Source: an uncultured Gammaproteobacteria bacterium
GTDB taxonomy: Bacteria > Patescibacteriota > Microgenomatia > Woykebacterales > RBG-16-39-9b
Direction: 5' to 3'
Assembly: GCA_964367355.1 (NCBI GenBank)
Contig: CAYIWY010000002.1
Coordinates: 137,296-176,858, forward strand
Length of the DNA stretch: 39,563 nt
Shown: piece by piece, positions 6,611 to 38,859 of the stretch
Numbering within the stretch: the stretch's first letter is position 1
Layout of the letters: each line of letters opens with the position of its first letter
Made by a program: the position numbers and the translations under genes
Notes under the pieces: model-generated
Databases searched by the model: none
Told to the model about the DNA's origin: nothing
The model's input: only the letters and a program-made list of their open reading frames with translations

Positions 6611-7273
6611 TTATATAATCGAATTTATTCTAAGTACTTCTACAATCTCTTCGTGGATTTTATTTTTACTTTTCAACTTGCCTTTTCCGTCAATGCAATT
6701 TATTACCAACCAGTTTTTATCACGGCTTGCCATTTTTAAATAAACTTTTCTAGCTTCTTCCATATAGGCTGCTTCAGTCTCATGAATATCTTTCTTGCGG
6801 GGAATTTTTTTAAGTAATTGAAAGGAAGCACTAACTGGCATATCCAACAAAATGACGAAGTCTTCCCTGGGCATTTTATTAACTTTGTAATCCAGTTCGT
6901 CAAGCCAATGTAAAAACTCATCTCTTTTTGGCTCGATCATCTTGGCAGCTTGGTGAGCTTTGTTACTCGGAGCATAACGGTCGCAAATAATTATTTTACC
7001 TTCATTTAAATCATCAAAAAGTTCTTCCTTTACCGTAACTCTGTCCATGGCATAAGCCAAGGAAATTAAATAAGGAGAGACCTCACTAATTGTCCCAAAT
7101 TCGCCACGTAAAAATTTGGTAATGGTTTTTCCATGAAAAGTTTTCTGGTACTGCGGAAATTTGTAATAAGAAAACTTCTTTTTGTTTTTAGTTAAATAAG
7201 CTGTCAGGAGTTTGACCTGAGTACTTTTCCCAGTTCCGTCAGTTCCTTCAAAATCAATTATTTTTCCATGCAT
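6611..7273 (-). CDS. tmk: Thymidylate kinase
   Basis: P-loop FEGTDGTGKST, FP.Y, AYAMDR, ICDRY..SN.AHQ. Confidence 0.93.
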   Translation of the reverse strand: MHGKIIDFEGTDGTGKSTQVKLLTAYLTKNKKKFSYYKFPQYQKTFHGKTITKFLRGEFGTISEVSPYLISLAYAMDRVTVKEELFDDLNEGKIIICDRYAPSNKAHQAAKMIEPKRDEFLHWLDELDYKVNKMPREDFVILLDMPVSASFQLLKKIPRKKDIHETEAAYMEEARKVYLKMASRDKNWLVINCIDGKGKLKSKNKIHEEIVEVLRINSII

Positions 7274-8326: not shown

Positions 8327-9892
8327 TTAGTTTTTTACCTGGATAGATTTTTTTCCACGTTTAACATACCGAGTTGGGGCATCAATTTTCTCTTGAAAAT
8401 CTTGAGTAACTGCTTGCGAAGCAACATCAATCCGGCGGTCTTGTTTCCAATCGTGCAGATTGTAATTTAAAGCGATCTCAGCTTTTTGCAGTTCCGCTCC
8501 AAGATCGAGGGCGTGAAAGGACATTGAAATTAGTTCCCACTCACCGATTTGTTTAATGATTTCTTTGGCAGTTTTCCCATGAAACATCGTCAGTTCCGTC
8601 GCCATATCGTTGGTCATTAGTTTTGCCAGAATTAACTTATTCTCCCAGTCAATATCAATCAGCCAATTCCCCCGCGGGTCAATCTGGAAATGAAACCCTG
8701 GTTTATACTTGGCAGTTTCTTTGATATAGTATTTTTCGAGTAAATCGGCGGCCGTATTCCAATCATCAGCGTACATGTGGGCACTGTGGGTAATCATCGT
8801 CAACTTACCCATCGAGTAGCCGGCCGAGTCGGCAATTTCTTTTTGGAGTTTGCGGGCCGCAAACATATTGCGCGGCCAACCGTGGAACATATCTTGGGAC
8901 CGGACGTGGACGGTCATAAAGAACTTTTTGTCCTGTACCCCACCAATAATTTGGGTAATGCAAGGTGTATCGCCAGTATTGGCCGCCGCCCAATCAACCT
9001 TAACATTGTATAAAGAAGCGATCATTTTTTTGCTGTCCGGACGGTTTTGCAGCAGTTTTTTAATTTCTTCGATTTGGTTAATTCCTTCCATATTACGCAT
9101 CCGCTCGCCATAGTTGTAGGCCATTCCGGGGATACGTCGAGCAGTTAGCCATTCGGGGTAATAGGCTTTTAATTCATTTGTAGTAAATGGTAAATATTCA
9201 GGAAAATATTCATTTTCCGGATCTTCGTCGGTGACAACAGCGTTGAGGTTAAGGATTTCTTTTAATTCGTTAGTCGTGGCATAACGAGTGGATTTAACTC
9301 GACCATATTTTGTCACCATGTTGAGAACTTTTAACCAGAGGGCTGCCACCGTCGGCGCTTCAATCCGAAAACTCACTTGTTCGCTTGGCCAAGTGGTTAC
9401 CTTTTTCTCAGTCGCCGGAAAAATTTCAGCTTTAGCTCGGAAAGGTTTTTCTTTTTTAAATTTTTTAACAGCTGCAACAACTTCTTCTTTTGGTTTACCG
9501 CGCATGTCGACTAGTTCAACATTTTTACGAAAATCTTCTACAGCGTCTTTTGGAATTTCCGGCTCAATTTGTCCGGGTGCATCAATAATTTTGTAATCGT
9601 TGTCAATTCCTTTTTCCATAAAATTCCGTAGCGACGATCCAGAACCCGACATATCCGCTCCCCACATAACTAAATGGCGGATCGATGGGTTGGCCAAAAC
9701 ATTGCGCATCATGTGGTTGATCCCGGCTGGGCTGTAGAGGTTGCCAATGGCAGCGTAATCTTTTTTCTCAAGTGAATCTTTGATTACATCACGTTCTGTC
9801 CACAAAGTGACCACCCCAACTGATTGGTCCGGATCACCAACCCGCAAAATGTTTTCGTATAAAATCGGCCACTTTTCTGTTCTAGCTGCCAT
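8327..9892 (-). CDS. thyA: Thymidylate synthase fused to an N-terminal MtrA-like and a C-terminal DUF4346-like domain
   Basis: TS motifs YNYGER, TPC, RSQD..HGWPRN, SAHMY. N-terminus GINHMMRNVLANPSIRHL resembles MtrA. C-terminus has DPRG...HALDLGAELQKAE...QD. Confidence 0.85.
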   Translation of the reverse strand: MAARTEKWPILYENILRVGDPDQSVGVVTLWTERDVIKDSLEKKDYAAIGNLYSPAGINHMMRNVLANPSIRHLVMWGADMSGSGSSLRNFMEKGIDNDYKIIDAPGQIEPEIPKDAVEDFRKNVELVDMRGKPKEEVVAAVKKFKKEKPFRAKAEIFPATEKKVTTWPSEQVSFRIEAPTVAALWLKVLNMVTKYGRVKSTRYATTNELKEILNLNAVVTDEDPENEYFPEYLPFTTNELKAYYPEWLTARRIPGMAYNYGERMRNMEGINQIEEIKKLLQNRPDSKKMIASLYNVKVDWAAANTGDTPCITQIIGGVQDKKFFMTVHVRSQDMFHGWPRNMFAARKLQKEIADSAGYSMGKLTMITHSAHMYADDWNTAADLLEKYYIKETAKYKPGFHFQIDPRGNWLIDIDWENKLILAKLMTNDMATELTMFHGKTAKEIIKQIGEWELISMSFHALDLGAELQKAEIALNYNLHDWKQDRRIDVASQAVTQDFQEKIDAPTRYVKRGKKSIQVKN

Positions 9893-9894
9893 AA

Positions 9895-9950
9895 TTTCTT
9901 TAGCTTACGCTGCAAGGTGCAAGTTTGGTGCTACCTTTCAAAAGGTAGCT
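9895..9950. repeat. Truncated copy of the structured intergenic repeat
   Basis: TAGC...CAAGGTGCAAGTTTGGT plus the hairpin GCTACCTTTCAAAAGGTAGC; aligns with 1276-1323 and 4617-4671. Confidence 0.55.
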
Positions 9951-9958
9951 AAAATAAT

Positions 9959-10447
9959 CTATTCTAGTTCTTCACAAAGTTTAGACTCTTCTAGTTTTTT
10001 GTGATCATAACGACTAGTTTGAACTTCAACTTCTTGGTCAACTTCCTCAAATATTAGTTGAGCGATTGCAAGGCCCGGCCTTGTTAACACAGGTTTGTTT
10101 GAAAGATTTTTCAAAGTAAAAAGCGGTTTCCCTGCAAAATTTGGTGCTAAAATATCAGCTTCAAAAGTACACAGTACCCCTAGTCGAGCTAAACTTGATC
10201 GTGGAACAATCCGAGCAATTAAATTAGCTGGCAATTCGATAAATTCCAAAGCATTAACCAAAATAAAATTATCGTTTGTTAAGTAGTAATTATTTAATGA
10301 CAACTCCTTGTTCTTTGCAGGATCTAGCGCAACCGAATCTAGGTGCAAATCAATCGAAACAGTACCAACTGAAGCTTCATCAAAAGGGTTAATTTTTATT
10401 TTCTTTTCCGTAATTAATTTTTCAATTGACTGTTTCGAAAGAATCAC
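9959..10447 (-). CDS. dCTP deaminase/dUTPase-family paralogue lacking the catalytic Asp and Glu
   Basis: MILS, SIDLHL, PRSSLARLG and IAQL are present. DPG..G...LE is replaced by APN..G...FT. Confidence 0.85.
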   Translation of the reverse strand: MILSKQSIEKLITEKKIKINPFDEASVGTVSIDLHLDSVALDPAKNKELSLNNYYLTNDNFILVNALEFIELPANLIARIVPRSSLARLGVLCTFEADILAPNFAGKPLFTLKNLSNKPVLTRPGLAIAQLIFEEVDQEVEVQTSRYDHKKLEESKLCEELE

Positions 10448-11071
10448 CTATTTAACCCTCACAGACTTTTTTCCGTGTTTAATATAACGAGGTTCTTCGC
10501 TACTCATTTCTTGTGAAATACGGCTAGCATCCGGGCTTTTTTGGTTGGCATATTTTGCATTCTTTCTCTTATTATAGGGATTATCCGATGGGCTAGAAAG
10601 TTCCTCAAAGGTAAAAGAGCAAATCTTCATTCCTGGGTAAAGAGCGACTGGTAAAACCCCAATGTTTCCTAATTCTAATACTGGTGTACCATCCCAACCA
10701 GGATCAAAACGAGCCGCAGTCGAATGAACGATTATTCCAATTCTACCTAACGAGCTCCGCCCTTCCAACCTGCCTAATAAATCATCGGCGATTTTTAAAC
10801 TTTCGGTTGTTGTGGCAAGACAAAATTCTCCTGGACGCATGATAAAAGCTTCTCCCGTGCTAACAACAATATCTTTCATAATTTCACTTGATAAACTTGG
10901 ATTTCTCGGATCGATGTAAGGGTATTTAGAATGGTTGAAAATTTTAAAAGTATTCCCAAGATGGAAATCTATTGAACAACTACCTAGTTGGTCTTCGTAA
11001 TTTGGTGCAGGTTTAATCGCAATTTTACCTTCAGTGATATTGCGGCGAATATCGTGGTCGGAAAGAATCAT
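10448..11071 (-). CDS. dcd: dCTP deaminase
   Basis: MILSD (ATG at 11071), EGRSSLGR, HSTA, FDPGW.G..VLE, KY..Q. Confidence 0.95.
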   Translation of the reverse strand: MILSDHDIRRNITEGKIAIKPAPNYEDQLGSCSIDFHLGNTFKIFNHSKYPYIDPRNPSLSSEIMKDIVVSTGEAFIMRPGEFCLATTTESLKIADDLLGRLEGRSSLGRIGIIVHSTAARFDPGWDGTPVLELGNIGVLPVALYPGMKICSFTFEELSSPSDNPYNKRKNAKYANQKSPDASRISQEMSSEEPRYIKHGKKSVRVK

Positions 11072-11166
11072 ATAGTTTGGACGGCCCTCCGATTCACCGG
11101 AGACCCCCTTTGCGTTAACACTATAACAGAGATAATTATAATTAAGAAAGTAGTTCAAAAGGTATC

Positions 11167-32740: not shown

Positions 32741-34933
32741 CTAACCAGTCCAGTTAAAGAACAGCATTGAAGCGTCGAAGATATCAACCCTTCCGTCGTG
32801 ATTGAGATCATAGGCCGGAGTAGTGGTGCTGTTCCAGTTGAAGAAAAGAATGGAGGCATCAAAGATATTTACAGATCCATCACCATTTATATCCCCAACT
32901 TTTGTGCTAACAGTGCTAGTAACCGTGACATTACTAAACTGCGCACTGCTGGAAAGCGTATTGTTGTGTGAAGTTACTGCCAGACCAACAGTTACGCTTG
33001 CTGTCATTGGTAAGCTGAAGGTAGTGCCAACCTGAGTAAAGCTCACCCCATCACTGGATTTAAAGGCACTGATATTGTTACCGGTTCTTTGCAGTTTAAG
33101 CCAGACGGGGTAAGTGAAAGCTCCGCCATTAAAGTATGTACCTACCCCGTTAGTAGCCGAGCGGTACTGTAGATCAAGACCACTTCCGGTTGTGGTGGTG
33201 AGCAAAACATTGATTGAACCCGCAGCGGTAGTTTCCCGAATCATAACACCTGCCTTGGCCCAAGGATCGGTGTTGGTTTGAGAATTAACTTTAGCAACAA
33301 TTGTGCCGTCTCCATTTAAGGGTTGGTAAACATAACGGAAAGCATCGGCAGCGTTCCAAATATCATCTCCGGAACCACTGATAGTAAATGTTCCGGTAGT
33401 GCTGCTGTAAATGGCCGAACCGCCAATCCCAACTGCACCAATATCCGCACTCACCCAAGGAGCTGGTGGAGCCTGAGCATTAAGATCTACAATTACGGTA
33501 ATGGTTTGTAGGCTAGAAGCTTGGTTGATAGTGTCATAGGCTTTAGCCGAGATAGTGTGGGATCCAGTTAGTCCGGTTGTACTCCAGGGATAAGAATAGG
33601 GTGAGGTTGTATCGGCTGGAGATTTAAGCGCGCCATCAACATAGAATTCAACCTTGCTGATACCGGTGTCGTCAGTTGCATTAGCCGTAATATTTACGCT
33701 TGAAGTATTGACCAAAGCTCCGTTAGCTGGACTAGTAATACTAACTGTTGGTGGGTTATCGACTGCAGTCCCAAAATCAGGAGCCCAAGCTACTCTGGGT
33801 GTTCCCCCACCAGCTCCTTGGGTACCGGCAGAAGTTTTCACGGTATTGTAATTATTCAGATTCCAATTGGTAACAACATTTAGTCTAGAAATGAAACTAA
33901 ATAGCTCGGGTTCGAGCGGATTATCACCAAACCCATATCCGTAGCGTGACCGCAAAACATCATCCCCATTATTTTCTACATTAAAAGTGAATGGGTCCCA
34001 GCAAGGATTAGTATCAACGATATATACACCGTAGTCTTGCATAGCATGGCCAATTCTTTTACCAAAAGGGGTTGTAGCTAAACTATCTACATTAACACTC
34101 GGTGGTAAAGCAACCAGAGCCCCCATGACGGCAGCTGGAGTTGAACCGCTATAAGAAAAACAATCACTACCGTTCCAACCACTGTCGGCTCTGACGGCAG
34201 GCCATTTAAAACCAGTCGTAGATTTCGACAAAACAGCAGTTGGCACAGTTAGTTTTAGGGCGTGTCTAATCGGTTCGTCATTTTGAATCTCCCAATGTCG
34301 AATCGAACCTCCGACGGCTGAAAGTCCTGAACCTCCATGACCCCCACCCTGACCACCAACTATTCCTGAACCGTAGATATCATGAGTTCCCAATTGCCCA
34401 TAACCCCAATATAGCGGTCCGGTGCCAGCACACCTGGCAATCCAAATACCCTCTTGGATCGTTCGACCATCAGAATTTAAGGCCCCACCGGTATTGTTTG
34501 GTAAAAAGCTACCGGATGTTAAAGGAGTTGTCAGACCATCTGGTACGTGAAAACTACCAAAATCTGTACCGCCTAAACAGGTAGCGTTCCATTGGCCTGT
34601 TCGCATATAGGTCGGCCTCAAGGGGCTGGCCGGGTCAATCATTATCATTTCATCTTCGGTATTTACTCCATTCCCAGTAGAGGCTGGGAAATTCGCAGGA
34701 CTATACGTTGCACTAGCACCGATTGGCAAATTCCAGATTCCGCTTTTGTCAAAAGGCCACTTGCCAACTTCACGACCAGCTGCATTTACCGATGGTTTTT
34801 TAGCTACCTCTTCACTTTTTTGAACCAGATAAACAGTTAGAGGAATCGCAAGTAATATTAATGTAGAGGCTGAAATAATAAGAAGATTATTTACTGAGTT
34901 TTTTTGGACAATTTGAGCCAGGTGTTTTTTCAT
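32741..34933 (-). CDS. Dockerin-bearing exported protein (unknown globular domain, Ig, lectin-like beta-sandwich)
   Basis: N-terminal TM, Gly/Trp-rich domain, Ig (PPTVSITSP...KVEFYVDG), W.KAGVMIRE sandwich, dockerin GDINGDGSVNIFD...DLNHDGRVDIFD. Confidence 0.85.
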   Translation of the reverse strand: MKKHLAQIVQKNSVNNLLIISASTLILLAIPLTVYLVQKSEEVAKKPSVNAAGREVGKWPFDKSGIWNLPIGASATYSPANFPASTGNGVNTEDEMIMIDPASPLRPTYMRTGQWNATCLGGTDFGSFHVPDGLTTPLTSGSFLPNNTGGALNSDGRTIQEGIWIARCAGTGPLYWGYGQLGTHDIYGSGIVGGQGGGHGGSGLSAVGGSIRHWEIQNDEPIRHALKLTVPTAVLSKSTTGFKWPAVRADSGWNGSDCFSYSGSTPAAVMGALVALPPSVNVDSLATTPFGKRIGHAMQDYGVYIVDTNPCWDPFTFNVENNGDDVLRSRYGYGFGDNPLEPELFSFISRLNVVTNWNLNNYNTVKTSAGTQGAGGGTPRVAWAPDFGTAVDNPPTVSITSPANGALVNTSSVNITANATDDTGISKVEFYVDGALKSPADTTSPYSYPWSTTGLTGSHTISAKAYDTINQASSLQTITVIVDLNAQAPPAPWVSADIGAVGIGGSAIYSSTTGTFTISGSGDDIWNAADAFRYVYQPLNGDGTIVAKVNSQTNTDPWAKAGVMIRETTAAGSINVLLTTTTGSGLDLQYRSATNGVGTYFNGGAFTYPVWLKLQRTGNNISAFKSSDGVSFTQVGTTFSLPMTASVTVGLAVTSHNNTLSSSAQFSNVTVTSTVSTKVGDINGDGSVNIFDASILFFNWNSTTTPAYDLNHDGRVDIFDASMLFFNWTG

Positions 34934-34947
34934 TGGTTGGCGTTGTA

Positions 34948-36510
34948 TCAACCAGTCCAGTTAAAAAATAGCATTGAGGCATCAAAGATATCAACTCTTC
35001 CGTTGTGGTTGAGATCGTAGGCCGGTGTGGTTGTACTATCCCAGTTGAAGAAAAGCATTGACGCATCAAAGATATTCACTCTTCCATCCCCATTTAAATC
35101 ACCCACTCTCGGTGGAGCTGGAGTCGTGGCCGGCACTGAAGTCGAATCAATAGAATTACCAATTGTATCTTTTGCCCGGATAAAGTAGGTGTAGGTAGTT
35201 GAGGGAACCAAACCAGTATCAGAAAAACTGGTGGTCGTTAGTGAAGTAGAATTTACCTTAGTTGCGTTGCGATAAATATCATAAGTCACACTGCTTAAGT
35301 TATCCGTACTCGCAGTCCAAGAAAGGTTTATTTGGGTATCGCTAATAACGCTCGGCGTTAAAATTGGTTTGGAAGGTGCTTGATTGTCAACGGTAAAGGA
35401 AATGATCTGAGTACCAATATTACCCGCCGCATCATAGGCTTTAACAGTTAACTGGTGGACAGCATTTGTCAGGGTTGTAGTATTCAAATTAGTTGAGTAA
35501 GGAGAAGTTGTGTCAGCAACCGGAGCATTTGTATCGACAATAAACTCCACTGTTGTAACCGCATTATTATCAGTTGCGGTTGCCGTTAAATTAAAGGAAC
35601 CATTGATTACTTGTGCATTAGAAGGGCTTGTAATCACCGGCACCGGTTGCAGATTATCAACCTTGACTGTAACCGTTGATGCCGGGTTCGAAACTCCGCC
35701 TGACCCATCGACCGCTTTAGCAGTTATCGTATGGTTAGCGTTTGTTTCCAAAGTTGTATCCCAGTTAAATTGATAGGTACTAGTTCCAGGATTTGGAACA
35801 GTTACGGATTGTTTCGGAGTTAAACTACTATCGATGTAAAAATCAACTCGACTAACGCTGATGTTGTCAGTAGCATCAGCCTTTACAGTTACATTCCCAC
35901 GAAGTGCGGCAGCGGCAATCGGCGAAGTGATACTTATTGTAGGCAAAGGGTCAACAATTGTAATTGTTGCTCCGGTAGTTGTCCCTAAAATATCAACCCC
36001 ATCGGAAGGTCTAATTACATAGGTACCATCGGCTACTCCAGTAACAAAATTAATCGGGGTTGCTCCGGGCGCAACCTTTGCTTTGAAGGTTACTTTAGCG
36101 ACAAGCTGATCTCCCGTAACTGTAGGGTTTACTGTAGGGTTTGTTAAACCAAAAGTTTTGACAACACCACCTGCTCCAACATCACGTGTTGGATCGCCAT
36201 TGGGGAAAGCGCTCCCAGTTTTGTCTAAGCTAATAAAATCAAACTTAGTGGCGTCATACGTAAGTTTTATCTGGACAGCATTAACTAATTCCGTACCGCT
36301 ATTTTCTCGTATATCAAAAGTAATATTACTGTTGACAGTCACATTACCCGTTGCTGGAACCAAACGGATAGTACCCGTACCCGCCGCATTTCCGCGCTCA
36401 TCCCTCTGATTAATAACAGTAATAACCGTCAAGGGAAGTGCCAACAACAGAAATGCAACTACAAAAACAGTAATTGAATCTTTTGTATTAAATTTAATTG
36501 GCAGTTTCAT
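34948..36510 (-). CDS. Cohesin + 2 Ig + FN3 + dockerin protein (adaptor scaffoldin-like)
   Basis: N-terminal TM, cohesin-like domain (VNAVQIKLTYD...VAKVTFK) similar to the one in 31421-32683, C-terminal dockerin. Confidence 0.85.
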   Translation of the reverse strand: MKLPIKFNTKDSITVFVVAFLLLALPLTVITVINQRDERGNAAGTGTIRLVPATGNVTVNSNITFDIRENSGTELVNAVQIKLTYDATKFDFISLDKTGSAFPNGDPTRDVGAGGVVKTFGLTNPTVNPTVTGDQLVAKVTFKAKVAPGATPINFVTGVADGTYVIRPSDGVDILGTTTGATITIVDPLPTISITSPIAAAALRGNVTVKADATDNISVSRVDFYIDSSLTPKQSVTVPNPGTSTYQFNWDTTLETNANHTITAKAVDGSGGVSNPASTVTVKVDNLQPVPVITSPSNAQVINGSFNLTATATDNNAVTTVEFIVDTNAPVADTTSPYSTNLNTTTLTNAVHQLTVKAYDAAGNIGTQIISFTVDNQAPSKPILTPSVISDTQINLSWTASTDNLSSVTYDIYRNATKVNSTSLTTTSFSDTGLVPSTTYTYFIRAKDTIGNSIDSTSVPATTPAPPRVGDLNGDGRVNIFDASMLFFNWDSTTTPAYDLNHNGRVDIFDASMLFFNWTG

Positions 36511-36609: not shown

Positions 36610-38859
36610 TCAACCAGTCCAGTTAAAGAACAGCATTGAGGCGTCAAAGATATCAACTCTTCCGTTGTGGCTGAGATCGTAGGCCGGTGTGGTTGTACTA
36701 TCCCAGTTGAAGAAAAGAATGGAGGCATCAAAGATATTTACTTTTCCATCGCTATTTAAATCCCCAGGTATGCCGTTTGCTTTTAGTTTAAGCGAGATTG
36801 CACTTAAGGACCAAGCCTCCCACTTGGTATTCCATAACATGGTGGTCGAAACTGATCCGGATTTATAACTCCCAGCTCCTTTAGTATCGCCACCGGAATA
36901 CAGATTCCAAATTTGTGTTTGGCCTAAACCAGCACTAACCGCATCTGAAAAAAGGTTTGGCGTTGACAAAACATCCTGCACTATCGCCGTAGTTGAACTG
37001 GGAATAGTAACAGCCGGGTTTGCACTGAAACCAATCGCTCCTTGGTAACTAATATTCGCTTGATCAACCCCGTACCAACCCACTGCACTCGCCACAGATC
37101 CACCAGGAATCCCTGTCAAAGTAACCACAATTTGTTTACGTCCTGAGGAAGGCGCCGAAAATTTCCAAAATTCCGTCCGTGCTGCACCTTGGTCAGAAGA
37201 ACCAACTAGAGTTAAGGGTAACCCATCGTATGTAACGCCTTGAGCAGAAACTGAACCTGCTTTTCGAATACTTAAAGCAACGATTAACATTCTATCTGTA
37301 CCTAAACCAGTTGTGTGAGACCAACTGTAACTTGCCAGAGCATTTCCAATTTTACTGGAAGTGTAGTCCAATTCTGGTCTGGACAAAGCTGGTGCAGTTA
37401 AATTATTTGTCGCAGTCGATAAAGGACTAGAGTCAGCCGAAGTATTATCAATAGAATCTGAGGCAGAAACCGTATAAGAATAATTGGTATTGGGTAAAAC
37501 AGAAAAATCTGTAAGCGTTGTAGTATTTACTCGAGCAATTTCCACGCCGTTTCTTTTCACTACATAATAATCAACCACAGCTCCAGTCGAAAGACTCCAA
37601 GTTAAGGTTAGCTTATTTGAGTAAATATCTGATGCGGTTAAACCTGTTGGAACGGACGGTGGTATTACATCATAAAGAAGTTGCTCGCCACTATTTAACG
37701 CGCTATCCCAATCTCCAATAAAATCCCACCAGTTACTCGCTCCGGGAACAGTGTTATTTTTCCCCGGCATATTTTGCCAGCGCCAAGTGTGATACTTAGT
37801 TTCATTACACAACCAAGTGTTACAGTTTATATAGGTTTTTTGTCCCGACCCATCTGGTCTCCAATCTTCACAGTCTGTCCAAGCATACCTTGTATCATAG
37901 TAATCGTAGAGATCACTAACCATAGCTGGTGTTTTCATTGTATTTGGCGGTTCGTGTGTCCAACCGCAGCGATGAAAACTGCTACCAGAACCGTCGTTGC
38001 TATAGTATGTCGTCCAAGGACCAATATAGTTATTTTGCATCATATTGTTGTCAACATGTTCAAGCATAATTTCTATTTGATGGCCGTGGTCGTGCACTGC
38101 CTCGTTCGTACCTCGGCCATAGTTATAGTTGTAAAGAACATATGATTTTGAACAAACTGGCATATTTAACGCGCCACCACCGCTGTTACTAGTGTCGCCA
38201 TGCGGGCCAGACATAACCGATTCTGCCGGCTCAATATTGCCGTAATGCCAACCGTATAACCACACTTCTCTAAGGCCTTGATTGTTGACATAGTTGCAAA
38301 TATTTAGATCAGTGAGAATCTTTCCGTAATCAGGTCGGTAAACCCCTTGTCCTGGTTTCCAAGGAACTTCAATACCGATTGGCAAAGCTGTAAGATATTC
38401 CTTCTGATCAATTATGGAATAATTTAAAGCCGGAGTTGCAGTCGGATCTTTGTACCCGTGATAAATACTTCCAGCTTGCAGGGCGTCTTTTGTTTCACTG
38501 GTTATTTGATCCACATGTGAGCGAATATTACTTAAAGTAACGTTTATACCCGTAATATTTGAATCTAAATTCACACCGTCTTGAGTTGGAAAATATTTTA
38601 AAACTAAAACCGGCATCGCGTAGCTGGTATTTTTATTTACCGGCGTCGCGGCTTTACTTCGATCGTCTCTACTGTTAAGGGCTACAAGTACTGTCAGAGG
38701 AATTGACAAAAGAATAAAAAGTGTTGAAAAAATTACTGTCAAATCCTTCGGCTCATATGGTGGTGTTAGCGATTTCCAATAGCTTCTTGCAGCTTTTTTT
38801 AATTTATGGTGCGGTTTTACTGGAGATAAATTTTGTTCAAAAAGATCGGCAGCGTTCAT
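36610..38859 (-). CDS. Dockerin-bearing exported protein with a putative metallopeptidase-like domain
   Basis: N-terminal TM, HDHGHQIE motif and CGWTH, FN3, beta-sandwich, C-terminal dockerin. Confidence 0.8.
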   Translation of the reverse strand: MNAADLFEQNLSPVKPHHKLKKAARSYWKSLTPPYEPKDLTVIFSTLFILLSIPLTVLVALNSRDDRSKAATPVNKNTSYAMPVLVLKYFPTQDGVNLDSNITGINVTLSNIRSHVDQITSETKDALQAGSIYHGYKDPTATPALNYSIIDQKEYLTALPIGIEVPWKPGQGVYRPDYGKILTDLNICNYVNNQGLREVWLYGWHYGNIEPAESVMSGPHGDTSNSGGGALNMPVCSKSYVLYNYNYGRGTNEAVHDHGHQIEIMLEHVDNNMMQNNYIGPWTTYYSNDGSGSSFHRCGWTHEPPNTMKTPAMVSDLYDYYDTRYAWTDCEDWRPDGSGQKTYINCNTWLCNETKYHTWRWQNMPGKNNTVPGASNWWDFIGDWDSALNSGEQLLYDVIPPSVPTGLTASDIYSNKLTLTWSLSTGAVVDYYVVKRNGVEIARVNTTTLTDFSVLPNTNYSYTVSASDSIDNTSADSSPLSTATNNLTAPALSRPELDYTSSKIGNALASYSWSHTTGLGTDRMLIVALSIRKAGSVSAQGVTYDGLPLTLVGSSDQGAARTEFWKFSAPSSGRKQIVVTLTGIPGGSVASAVGWYGVDQANISYQGAIGFSANPAVTIPSSTTAIVQDVLSTPNLFSDAVSAGLGQTQIWNLYSGGDTKGAGSYKSGSVSTTMLWNTKWEAWSLSAISLKLKANGIPGDLNSDGKVNIFDASILFFNWDSTTTPAYDLSHNGRVDIFDASMLFFNWTG

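Follow-up and report, generated by a model that had tools for sequence, protein, structure and literature searches.

A shared basic C-terminal peptide on dCTP deaminase and thymidylate synthase of a Woykebacterales bacterium

Results

The thymidine-nucleotide locus and its two tails

We analyzed a stretch of 39,563 nucleotides (positions 137,296 to 176,858 of contig CAYIWY010000002.1; hereafter, the window) from the genome of an uncultured bacterium of the order Woykebacterales (1.12 Mb, 33 contigs, 40% G+C, 100% complete; G000). The source names of close homologues put it within the Patescibacteria, close to 'Candidatus Woykebacteria'. The minus strand of the window carries a thymidine-nucleotide gene cluster in the order dcd1-dcd2-thyA-tmk, with two small open reading frames (ORFs) between thyA and tmk (Table 1). 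Two of the encoded enzymes, the deoxycytidine triphosphate (dCTP) deaminase Dcd, encoded by dcd1, and the thymidylate synthase ThyA, end in the same short basic peptide, which we call the tail and which is the subject of this study.

The two C-termini share the consensus R-Y-[IV]-[KR]-x-G-K-K-x-[IV]-x-[IVL], the residues of which we number from the Arg (R1), with a net charge of +4 to +7. Upon aligning the tails, we found 9 of 13 residues to be identical, 3 of which are encoded by different synonymous codons (CGG/CGT, AAA/AAG, GTA/GTT). As judged from the sequences, both tails are copies of one portable basic tag of 12-14 residues with a putative beta-hairpin fold, carried on a flexible and mostly acidic linker. 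The linkers span 6-16 residues in Dcd and 17-31 residues in ThyA and are net negative in 74/79 and 19/25 of the tail-bearing homologues, respectively.

Both tails lie outside the enzyme folds. Dcd scored 197.4 bits against the dCTP deaminase model TIGR02274 of NCBIfam (cut-off, 92.8 bits), with profile positions 1-180 of 180 aligned to residues 2-185, so that the profile is complete before the tail begins. Its longer ORF (10448..11158, minus strand) ends in SSEEPRYIKHGKKSVRVK before the stop, while the database form, P0001, starts at the ATG at 11071 and has 207 residues. In ThyA, three Pfam domains scored above their cut-offs, in the order PF04208 (63.1 bits), PF00303 (62.5 bits) and PF14251 (DUF4346; 52.8 bits), which identifies the protein as the three-domain thymidylate synthase type of the candidate phyla radiation (CPR) and DPANN; the DUF4346 match stops at residue 479. 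The ThyA core came nearest to TIGR03283, at 113.7 bits and thus under the cut-off of 174.55. The paralogue Dcd2 scored 90.3 bits with TIGR02274, slightly below the cut-off. The TAG stop of dcd1 directly abuts the GTG start of dcd2 in the same frame (window positions 10445-10450, minus strand); elsewhere, this junction is in frame with a 6-base gap (L002) or an out-of-frame overlap (L008).

Structure modeling with AlphaFold2, using family alignments, predicted a hairpin for the tail in both proteins. The model placed strands at residues 196-199 and 202-205 of Dcd, with a predicted local distance difference test (pLDDT) score of 56-61, and at residues 509-512 and 515-518 of ThyA, with block pLDDT values of 68 and 80. 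The mean pLDDT of the ThyA model was 91.4, with values below 50 at linker residues 497-500.

Table 1. Features of the thymidine-nucleotide locus; positions refer to the window.
Feature	Position	Strand	Basis or remark
dcd1, dCTP deaminase, first gene of the cluster	10448..11071	-	207 residues and TAG stop; Pfam DCD 147.5 bits
dcd2, Dcd/dUTPase-like paralogue, 162 residues, tail-less, acidic C-terminus	9959..10447	-	Pfam DCD 97.7 bits
thyA, thymidylate synthase (MtrA-like, archaeal-type ThyA core, DUF4346)	8327..9892	-	521 residues; ends in QEKIDAPTRYVKRGKKSIQVKN before the stop
tmk, thymidylate kinase, last gene of the cluster, tail-less	6611..7273	-	ORF and Pfam
5' leader of dcd1: AAAGGGGG, hairpin, GCCGUCC, seven bases, AUG	11072..11111	-	candidate ligand only
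Dcd tail RYIKHGKKSVRVK, residues 195-207, predicted beta-hairpin	10451..10489	-	DNA and AlphaFold2
ThyA tail RYVKRGKKSIQVKN, residues 508-521, predicted beta-hairpin	8330..8371	-	DNA and AlphaFold2
Dcd linker SQEMSSEEP, acidic, between C-terminal arm and tail	10490..10516	-	sequence
ThyA linker, residues 480-507, variable, ends in QEKIDAPT before the tail	8372..8455	-	sequence

Conservation of the tail

Within the genome, a six-frame scan with a regular expression located the tail motif only in dcd and thyA (two copies), and three looser forms of the motif returned the same two copies plus three unrelated loose matches. Among 569,778 pairs of C-termini (1,068 ORFs), four non-homologous pairs reached 9/13 identities, the Dcd-ThyA pair being one of them; such identity within one genome is thus rare, not unique. 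What settles the reality of the tail is its conservation in the orthologues of both proteins. Among the best 120 listed clusters per protein, to which all our homologue counts refer, the tail occurs in 79/120 Dcd and 25/120 ThyA homologues, and it is kept down to a body identity of 59-66%. Upon quantifying the mean majority fraction per position in the tail-bearing sets, we obtained 0.81 for the tail (12 positions), 0.83 for the body and 0.54 for the linker of Dcd, and 0.77, 0.82 and 0.56, respectively, for ThyA.

At the DNA level, we compared the distinct tail sequences of 14 Dcd and 11 ThyA genes. R1, G6, K7 and K8 were constant and Y2 was changed once, while each of these five residues was encoded by 2-5 synonymous codons. 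Such codon turnover at invariant residues indicates selection on the peptide and not on the RNA or DNA; by this measure, the tail is conserved under purifying selection at the peptide level. The Dcd and ThyA tails each keep a flavor of their own: Dcd has H, K or R at position 5, where H never occurs in ThyA, and ThyA often has P at position 11. Hence, the likeness is not maintained by homogenizing gene conversion.

These results confirm what the first-pass annotation had read from the DNA and support its interpretation in part. It had described one basic peptide at the ends of Dcd and ThyA, with coordinates and sequences that proved correct, had placed both tails beyond the enzyme folds and behind an acidic linker (which is mostly the case), and had taken the synonymous differences as a sign of selection on the peptide. 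The motif search that it had proposed returned the two genomic copies given above, and the absence from close orthologues that would have spoken against the idea was not what we found. It had also counted the thymidylate kinase Tmk in the set, which we discard, as Tmk carries no tail.

A Glu seven residues upstream of R-Y is kept in both proteins (alignment A4), is present in 100% of tail-bearing ThyA proteins (E501) and, in Dcd, is part of the normal family ending. This hints at an origin of the ThyA tail by copying of the neighboring dcd 3' end. The tail also bears a weak likeness to the Dcd arm, consisting of an initial [KR]-Y, a central K-S and a terminal R-[IV]. Homologues that lack the R-Y motif carry unrelated K/R-rich tails at this C-terminal position in 23/120 Dcd and 26/120 ThyA sequences, and the K/R-rich tails of the ThyA homologues P0159 and P0178 have an AT-hook-like RGRP core.

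Distribution across genomes

We scanned 61 related genomes with a DNA pattern for the first eight tail residues. The pattern matched in 9/17 genomes of the window's own family; outside the family, a single genome matched, by an internal chance match in another frame. Eight of the nine matching family genomes had exactly two matches, and G010, which is 83% complete, had one. A looser pattern revealed no further tails in five family genomes, and none of three pattern matches in viral contigs was a tail. Exactly 8/17 family genomes encode the three-domain ThyA, and all eight are tail-bearing. Overall, 10 family genomes bear the tail and 7 do not. The Dcd tail was present in every tail-bearing genome in which dcd was found; no dcd was found in the 83%-complete G010.

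At loci with the fusion ThyA, the tail is all-or-none on Dcd and ThyA. Among 40 species-representative loci with both genes, 3 were tailed on both and 37 lacked the Dcd tail; 35 of these 37 have a complete ThyA end, and the ThyA tail occurred in 0/35. Four metagenome contigs carried the tail on both proteins, and no fusion-ThyA locus had it on one gene only.

The tail-less members of the family have a module of dcd1, dcd2, a third dUTPase-like gene, canonical thyA, folA and tmk, in which dcd1 encodes a short K-rich end; 5/6 tail-less family Dcd proteins end in such a stretch. G011 and G001 have this canonical-ThyA module yet keep the tail on Dcd, with a tail-less ThyA; in G001, the Tyr of the tail is replaced by Asn. 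On a tree of the Dcd body, the distribution of the tail implies a minimum of three changes, of which two are dictated by well-supported branches, and the first-branching family member is tailed.

Two thymidylate modules alternate in the family (L177-L184; G001, G004, G007, G009, G011, G012, G014, G015), one with the three-domain ThyA and no folA, the other with canonical ThyA, folA and the third dUTPase-like gene. Separately, a sister lineage of the three-domain ThyA (L041:1597-3276, plus strand; P0144, P0146-P0149) has, after a long linker, a different conserved ending, ..SL(E/Q)DELKEI(F/L)G(L/F). This ending, located where the tail would be, is another candidate docking motif, and the Dcd adjoining the L041 ThyA lacks it.

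Other carriers

A metagenome-wide pattern scan returned 66 stretches, with true C-terminal tails on Dcd (8 contigs), on ThyA (6 contigs) and on one further protein, a sugar-1-phosphate nucleotidyltransferase of 263 residues on a 1.6 kb contig (L154:254-1042, plus strand) that ends in TPSPRYVKHGKKSIPVKNQ before the stop and comes nearest to mannose-1-phosphate guanylyltransferase, with a score below the cut-off. The remaining matches were internal or in short frames. We rejected two GNAT acetyltransferases (L121, L152) as carriers, the motif match there belonging to the fold and not to a tail.

In G011, a complete copy of the tail (ending in KIPVEPRYIRHGKKSIRIS before the stop) lies just after pyrK in the -1 frame (L185:3924-3990, plus strand), beside a run of five A, and one extra A in this run would fuse the copy to PyrK. 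The A5 run recurs in contigs from four runs of the same study, of which three may be the source, so that the frame shift cannot be put down to a single assembly error. We rejected PyrK as a third carrier, as the 120 listed PyrK homologues (query and 119 others) include no in-frame tail. The copy either is a recently broken tail or is translated by slippage at most. Overall, the sequences present the tail as portable between unrelated folds, as would be expected of a tag, in agreement with the first-pass annotation, which had proposed a tag common to unrelated enzymes.

The dcd leader

Upstream of tail-bearing dcd genes, we found a leader of the general form AAGGAGG, a variable GC-rich hairpin, G(C/A)CGUCC, 2-10 bases and AUG. 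The box was present upstream of 12/12 tail-bearing and 0/37 tail-less dcd genes and, in the set used for the tree, of 14/14 tail-bearing and 0/11 tail-less ones. Across the loci that we examined, gains and losses of the tail went along with those of the leader, and G001 is degenerate in both. Most single-sequence folds pair the Shine-Dalgarno-like GGAG run with the box around the inner hairpin, and between L136 and L202 the inner stem shows compensatory changes. The genome holds the leader only once, and comparison of the leader with Rfam gave sub-threshold matches only. In many outgroup dcd genes (L046-L076), a TATACT box precedes the ATG by 6-8 bases, suggesting leaderless mRNAs.

Other shared C-termini

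Two further sets of like C-termini came to light. Three adjacent large ORFs of the window (32741-34951, 34948-36510 and 36610-38859, minus strand) have the same last 17 residues, GRVDIFDASMLFFNWTG, on bodies that are alike in short stretches only. Elsewhere in the genome, G000:C5:45638-46837 (plus strand) and G000:C5:82416-82895 (minus strand) encode proteins with dissimilar bodies that share the C-terminal I(M/W)PIY(G/S)LTSSF, with 10/13 identical residues.

Discussion

What might such a tail do? The first-pass annotation had named a metabolon, binding to nucleic acid, membrane or scaffold, and a degron, with no choice among them. Our leading, though tentative, reading is that it binds nucleic acid as a polyanion, whereby we infer the binding, its ligand and the roles of the residues alike. 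With the tag, Dcd and the three-domain ThyA would share one binding specificity and so be held on a common ligand, most likely a nucleic acid; candidates are the nucleoid and RNAs, among them the leader of the operon itself. R1, K7 and K8 would contact phosphates, Y2 would stack or pack and G6 would form the turn, while the trimeric or hexameric state of Dcd and the dimeric state of ThyA would add avidity. We favor a polyanion because sister lineages have K/R-rich and AT-hook-like tails at this position and because the leader co-occurs with the tail.

Several observations weigh against this reading. Arg hardly ever takes the place of K7 or K8, nor Lys that of R1, a pattern more in keeping with a specific contact than with electrostatics alone. 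The tail is found on just two proteins per genome, while a general tether to the nucleoid might also be looked for on Tmk, Ndk or ribonucleotide reductase. AT-hook-like cores were seen in just 2/120 sequences, and the pLDDT of up to 80 for the ThyA tail in the monomer model could mean that it packs on protein. The leader adds caveats of its own: its correlation with the tail comprises 2-3 independent contrasts only (sign test, p 0.5), just 3/11 leaders fold better than shuffles at z < -3, RNAalifold on a MAFFT alignment of the leaders gave no consensus structure, and no leader was found upstream of thyA, tmk, the nucleotidyltransferase gene or the pyr genes of G011.

A narrower form of nucleic-acid binding, in which the tail is an RNA-binding hairpin that lets Dcd and ThyA control, by feedback, the translation of the operon encoding them, seems to us rather unlikely. 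Here, the enzymes would bind the dcd leader, in which the Shine-Dalgarno-like run would be paired with the box before the start codon, and binding would stabilize this closed form when the enzymes are in excess.

Alternatively, the tail could be a protein docking motif, the hairpin plugging into one receptor to build a synthesis complex for deoxythymidine triphosphate (dTTP) that channels deoxyuridine triphosphate (dUTP) and monophosphate (dUMP). We regard this as possible, if doubtful. Dcd and ThyA catalyze steps of one pathway, the tails come mostly two per genome, and the motif is strict, with R1, Y2, G6, K7 and K8 near-invariant and K and R not swapped. The receptor might be the Dcd oligomer itself, the other enzymes mimicking the Dcd tail, or it might be another hub; wherever dcd was found, Dcd is a carrier, while the second carrier varies (ThyA, the pyrK remnant, the nucleotidyltransferase). 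The conserved Glu of both proteins, with its hint of a ThyA tail copied from the dcd 3' end, and the pLDDT of 68-80 for the ThyA tail in the monomer model are likewise in line with docking. However, none of the receptor candidates that we considered co-distributes with the tail. Dcd2 as an obligate receptor was rejected, as it occurs in 13/17 family genomes, including tail-less ones, and is absent from the tail-bearing G005; another locus, L035, has the order dcd1-thyA-tmk without dcd2. The DUF4346 or MtrA-like domain was rejected as well, with DUF4346 found only inside the fusion ThyA and absent from the tail-bearing G001 and G011. These two genomes also speak against docking by having the Dcd tail beside a tail-less canonical ThyA. 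No residue of the Dcd body co-varies with the tail: the sole candidate, S31, is the outgroup state, and the differences in the ThyA body that track the tail are clade marks. Complex prediction for ThyA 1-496 with Dcd 165-207 gave a score of 0.00 in two runs made without controls, which speaks neither for nor against binding. Furthermore, the charge of +4 to +7 and the unrelated K/R-rich tails of sister lineages look more like polyanion binding.

A shared degron, one of the options raised by the first-pass annotation, would mark both enzymes for Lon, FtsH or a ClpP partner and so shut down dTTP synthesis jointly. The tail is indeed an exposed, portable C-terminal tag on a flexible linker, present on few proteins per genome, the genome encodes ClpP and Lon, and the ending K-K-[SA]-[VI]-x-[IVL] resembles a MuA-type ClpX signal. 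Yet ClpX was not found in this 100%-complete genome, in which TIGR00382 reached 29.4 bits at best (cut-off, 370.75) and no match was obtained for the N-terminal zinc domain, PF06689, making ClpX recognition tags such as the MuA-type C-terminal signal or the SspB XB tail unlikely. As a conserved 12-residue hairpin far exceeds what known degrons need, and the number of residues between the motif and the free C-terminus ranges from 0 to 4, we consider a degron of any kind improbable.

Little more can be said for a membrane anchor, which we deem very unlikely. In such a scenario, a basic and partly hydrophobic hairpin would bind anionic lipid and keep both enzymes at the membrane, close to the sites of nucleotide or DNA uptake, for which the net charge of +4 to +7, together with Tyr, Val and Ile, and the K/R-rich replacements in sister lineages could be suited. 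The predicted fold, however, is a hairpin and not an amphipathic helix, lipid binding needs no strict motif, and the RGRP cores of relatives point to DNA.

We attach equally little weight to a catalytic or regulatory lid, that is, an extra arm over the enzyme's own nucleotide site or that of a dUTPase-fold trimer, contacting phosphates. While the Dcd tail does come after the known C-terminal arm and weakly resembles it, the same motif occurs on four unrelated folds, the linker length varies in both proteins, the bodies of tailed and tail-less Dcd proteins show no difference, and the tail-bearing G005 has no Dcd2.

Finally, that the tail has no function and is a neutral duplication of a 3' end inherited by descent appears close to refuted: the genes are neighbors, so that local copying is easy, and the distribution is confined to one family-level clade, but the tail matches the enzyme bodies in conservation, next to poorly conserved linkers, its invariant residues show synonymous turnover, and it persists in homologues with bodies of 59-66% identity.

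Nucleic-acid binding thus remains the reading that we prefer. Whichever ligand it has, a portable tag of 13 residues that is conserved on two dTTP-branch enzymes would offer a direct experimental handle in uncultured ultra-small bacteria and could show how a minimal cell organizes or regulates its supply of thymidine nucleotides. Should the leader of the operon itself prove to be the ligand, enzyme-mediated translational feedback would gain a new form.

In our limited literature search, no shared peptide tag was reported on free cytosolic bacterial enzymes of deoxynucleoside triphosphate (dNTP) synthesis, and no literature on DUF4346 was found; the part of PMC12455944 that was covered contains nothing on the tail. 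Searching the chains of the PDB by hmmsearch with a tail profile from alignment A4 gave 0 matches at E values up to 10, and an ESM Atlas search with the tail gave scores of 0.80-0.82 only, which is chance level.

Comparison with known systems

Peptide tags shared by the enzymes of a pathway are known from compartments, namely the cargo-loading peptides of encapsulins, the encapsulation peptides of bacterial microcompartments (BMCs) and the peroxisomal targeting signal 1 (PTS1), all of them C-terminal targeting peptides. Like these, the tail is short, portable, located at the extreme C-terminus behind a flexible linker, and found on unrelated enzymes of the same pathway that are encoded side by side. 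Unlike them, it is a predicted basic beta-hairpin and matches neither the known consensus peptides nor an amphipathic helix. The latter is required of a BMC encapsulation peptide, an identity that we rejected given the two short strands that AlphaFold2 predicts in both tails. Neither the encapsulin shell (PF04454) nor the BMC shell (PF00936) had a match in this complete genome. A PDZ-type C-terminal ligand was rejected too, since it needs a fixed distance to the carboxylate, whereas the 79 Dcd tails have 0 residues after the motif in 30 cases, 1 in 23, 2 in 19, 3 in 1 and 4 in 6.

Among basic peptides that bind nucleic acid, the AT-hook, with its R-G-R-P core, and the arginine-rich beta-hairpins such as that of bovine immunodeficiency virus (BIV) Tat resemble the tail in being short and strongly basic, with a Gly at the turn and, for the tail, a predicted hairpin. 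The R-Y tails differ from both in lacking RGRP and in being Lys-rich instead of Arg-rich. We rejected their assignment as AT-hooks, as they have [HKR]-G-K-K in place of RGRP, which occurs only in P0159 and P0178, both without R-Y. A flexible C-terminal element beside a nucleotide site is also known from the Dcd arm and motif V of dUTPases, of which the tail is a weak sequence echo; we did not retain this identity, given that the Dcd profile ends before the tail, at residue 185, and that ThyA and the nucleotidyltransferase carry the tail as well.

Pyrimidine enzymes that bind their own mRNA are exemplified by the autoregulation of thymidylate synthase and by PyrR of B. subtilis. As in these systems, an enzyme of the pathway would here act on the leader of its own operon, with a stem-loop covering the Shine-Dalgarno-like run; there, however, the enzyme body binds the RNA, whereas here an appended peptide would do so, the link to the leader being a correlation only. 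The idea of keeping the enzymes of dTTP synthesis together has precedents in the dNTP synthetase complex of phage T4 and in the fused dihydrofolate reductase-thymidylate synthase (DHFR-TS). Those systems rely on body-to-body contacts or on gene fusion, while the enzymes described here have a common peptide tag.

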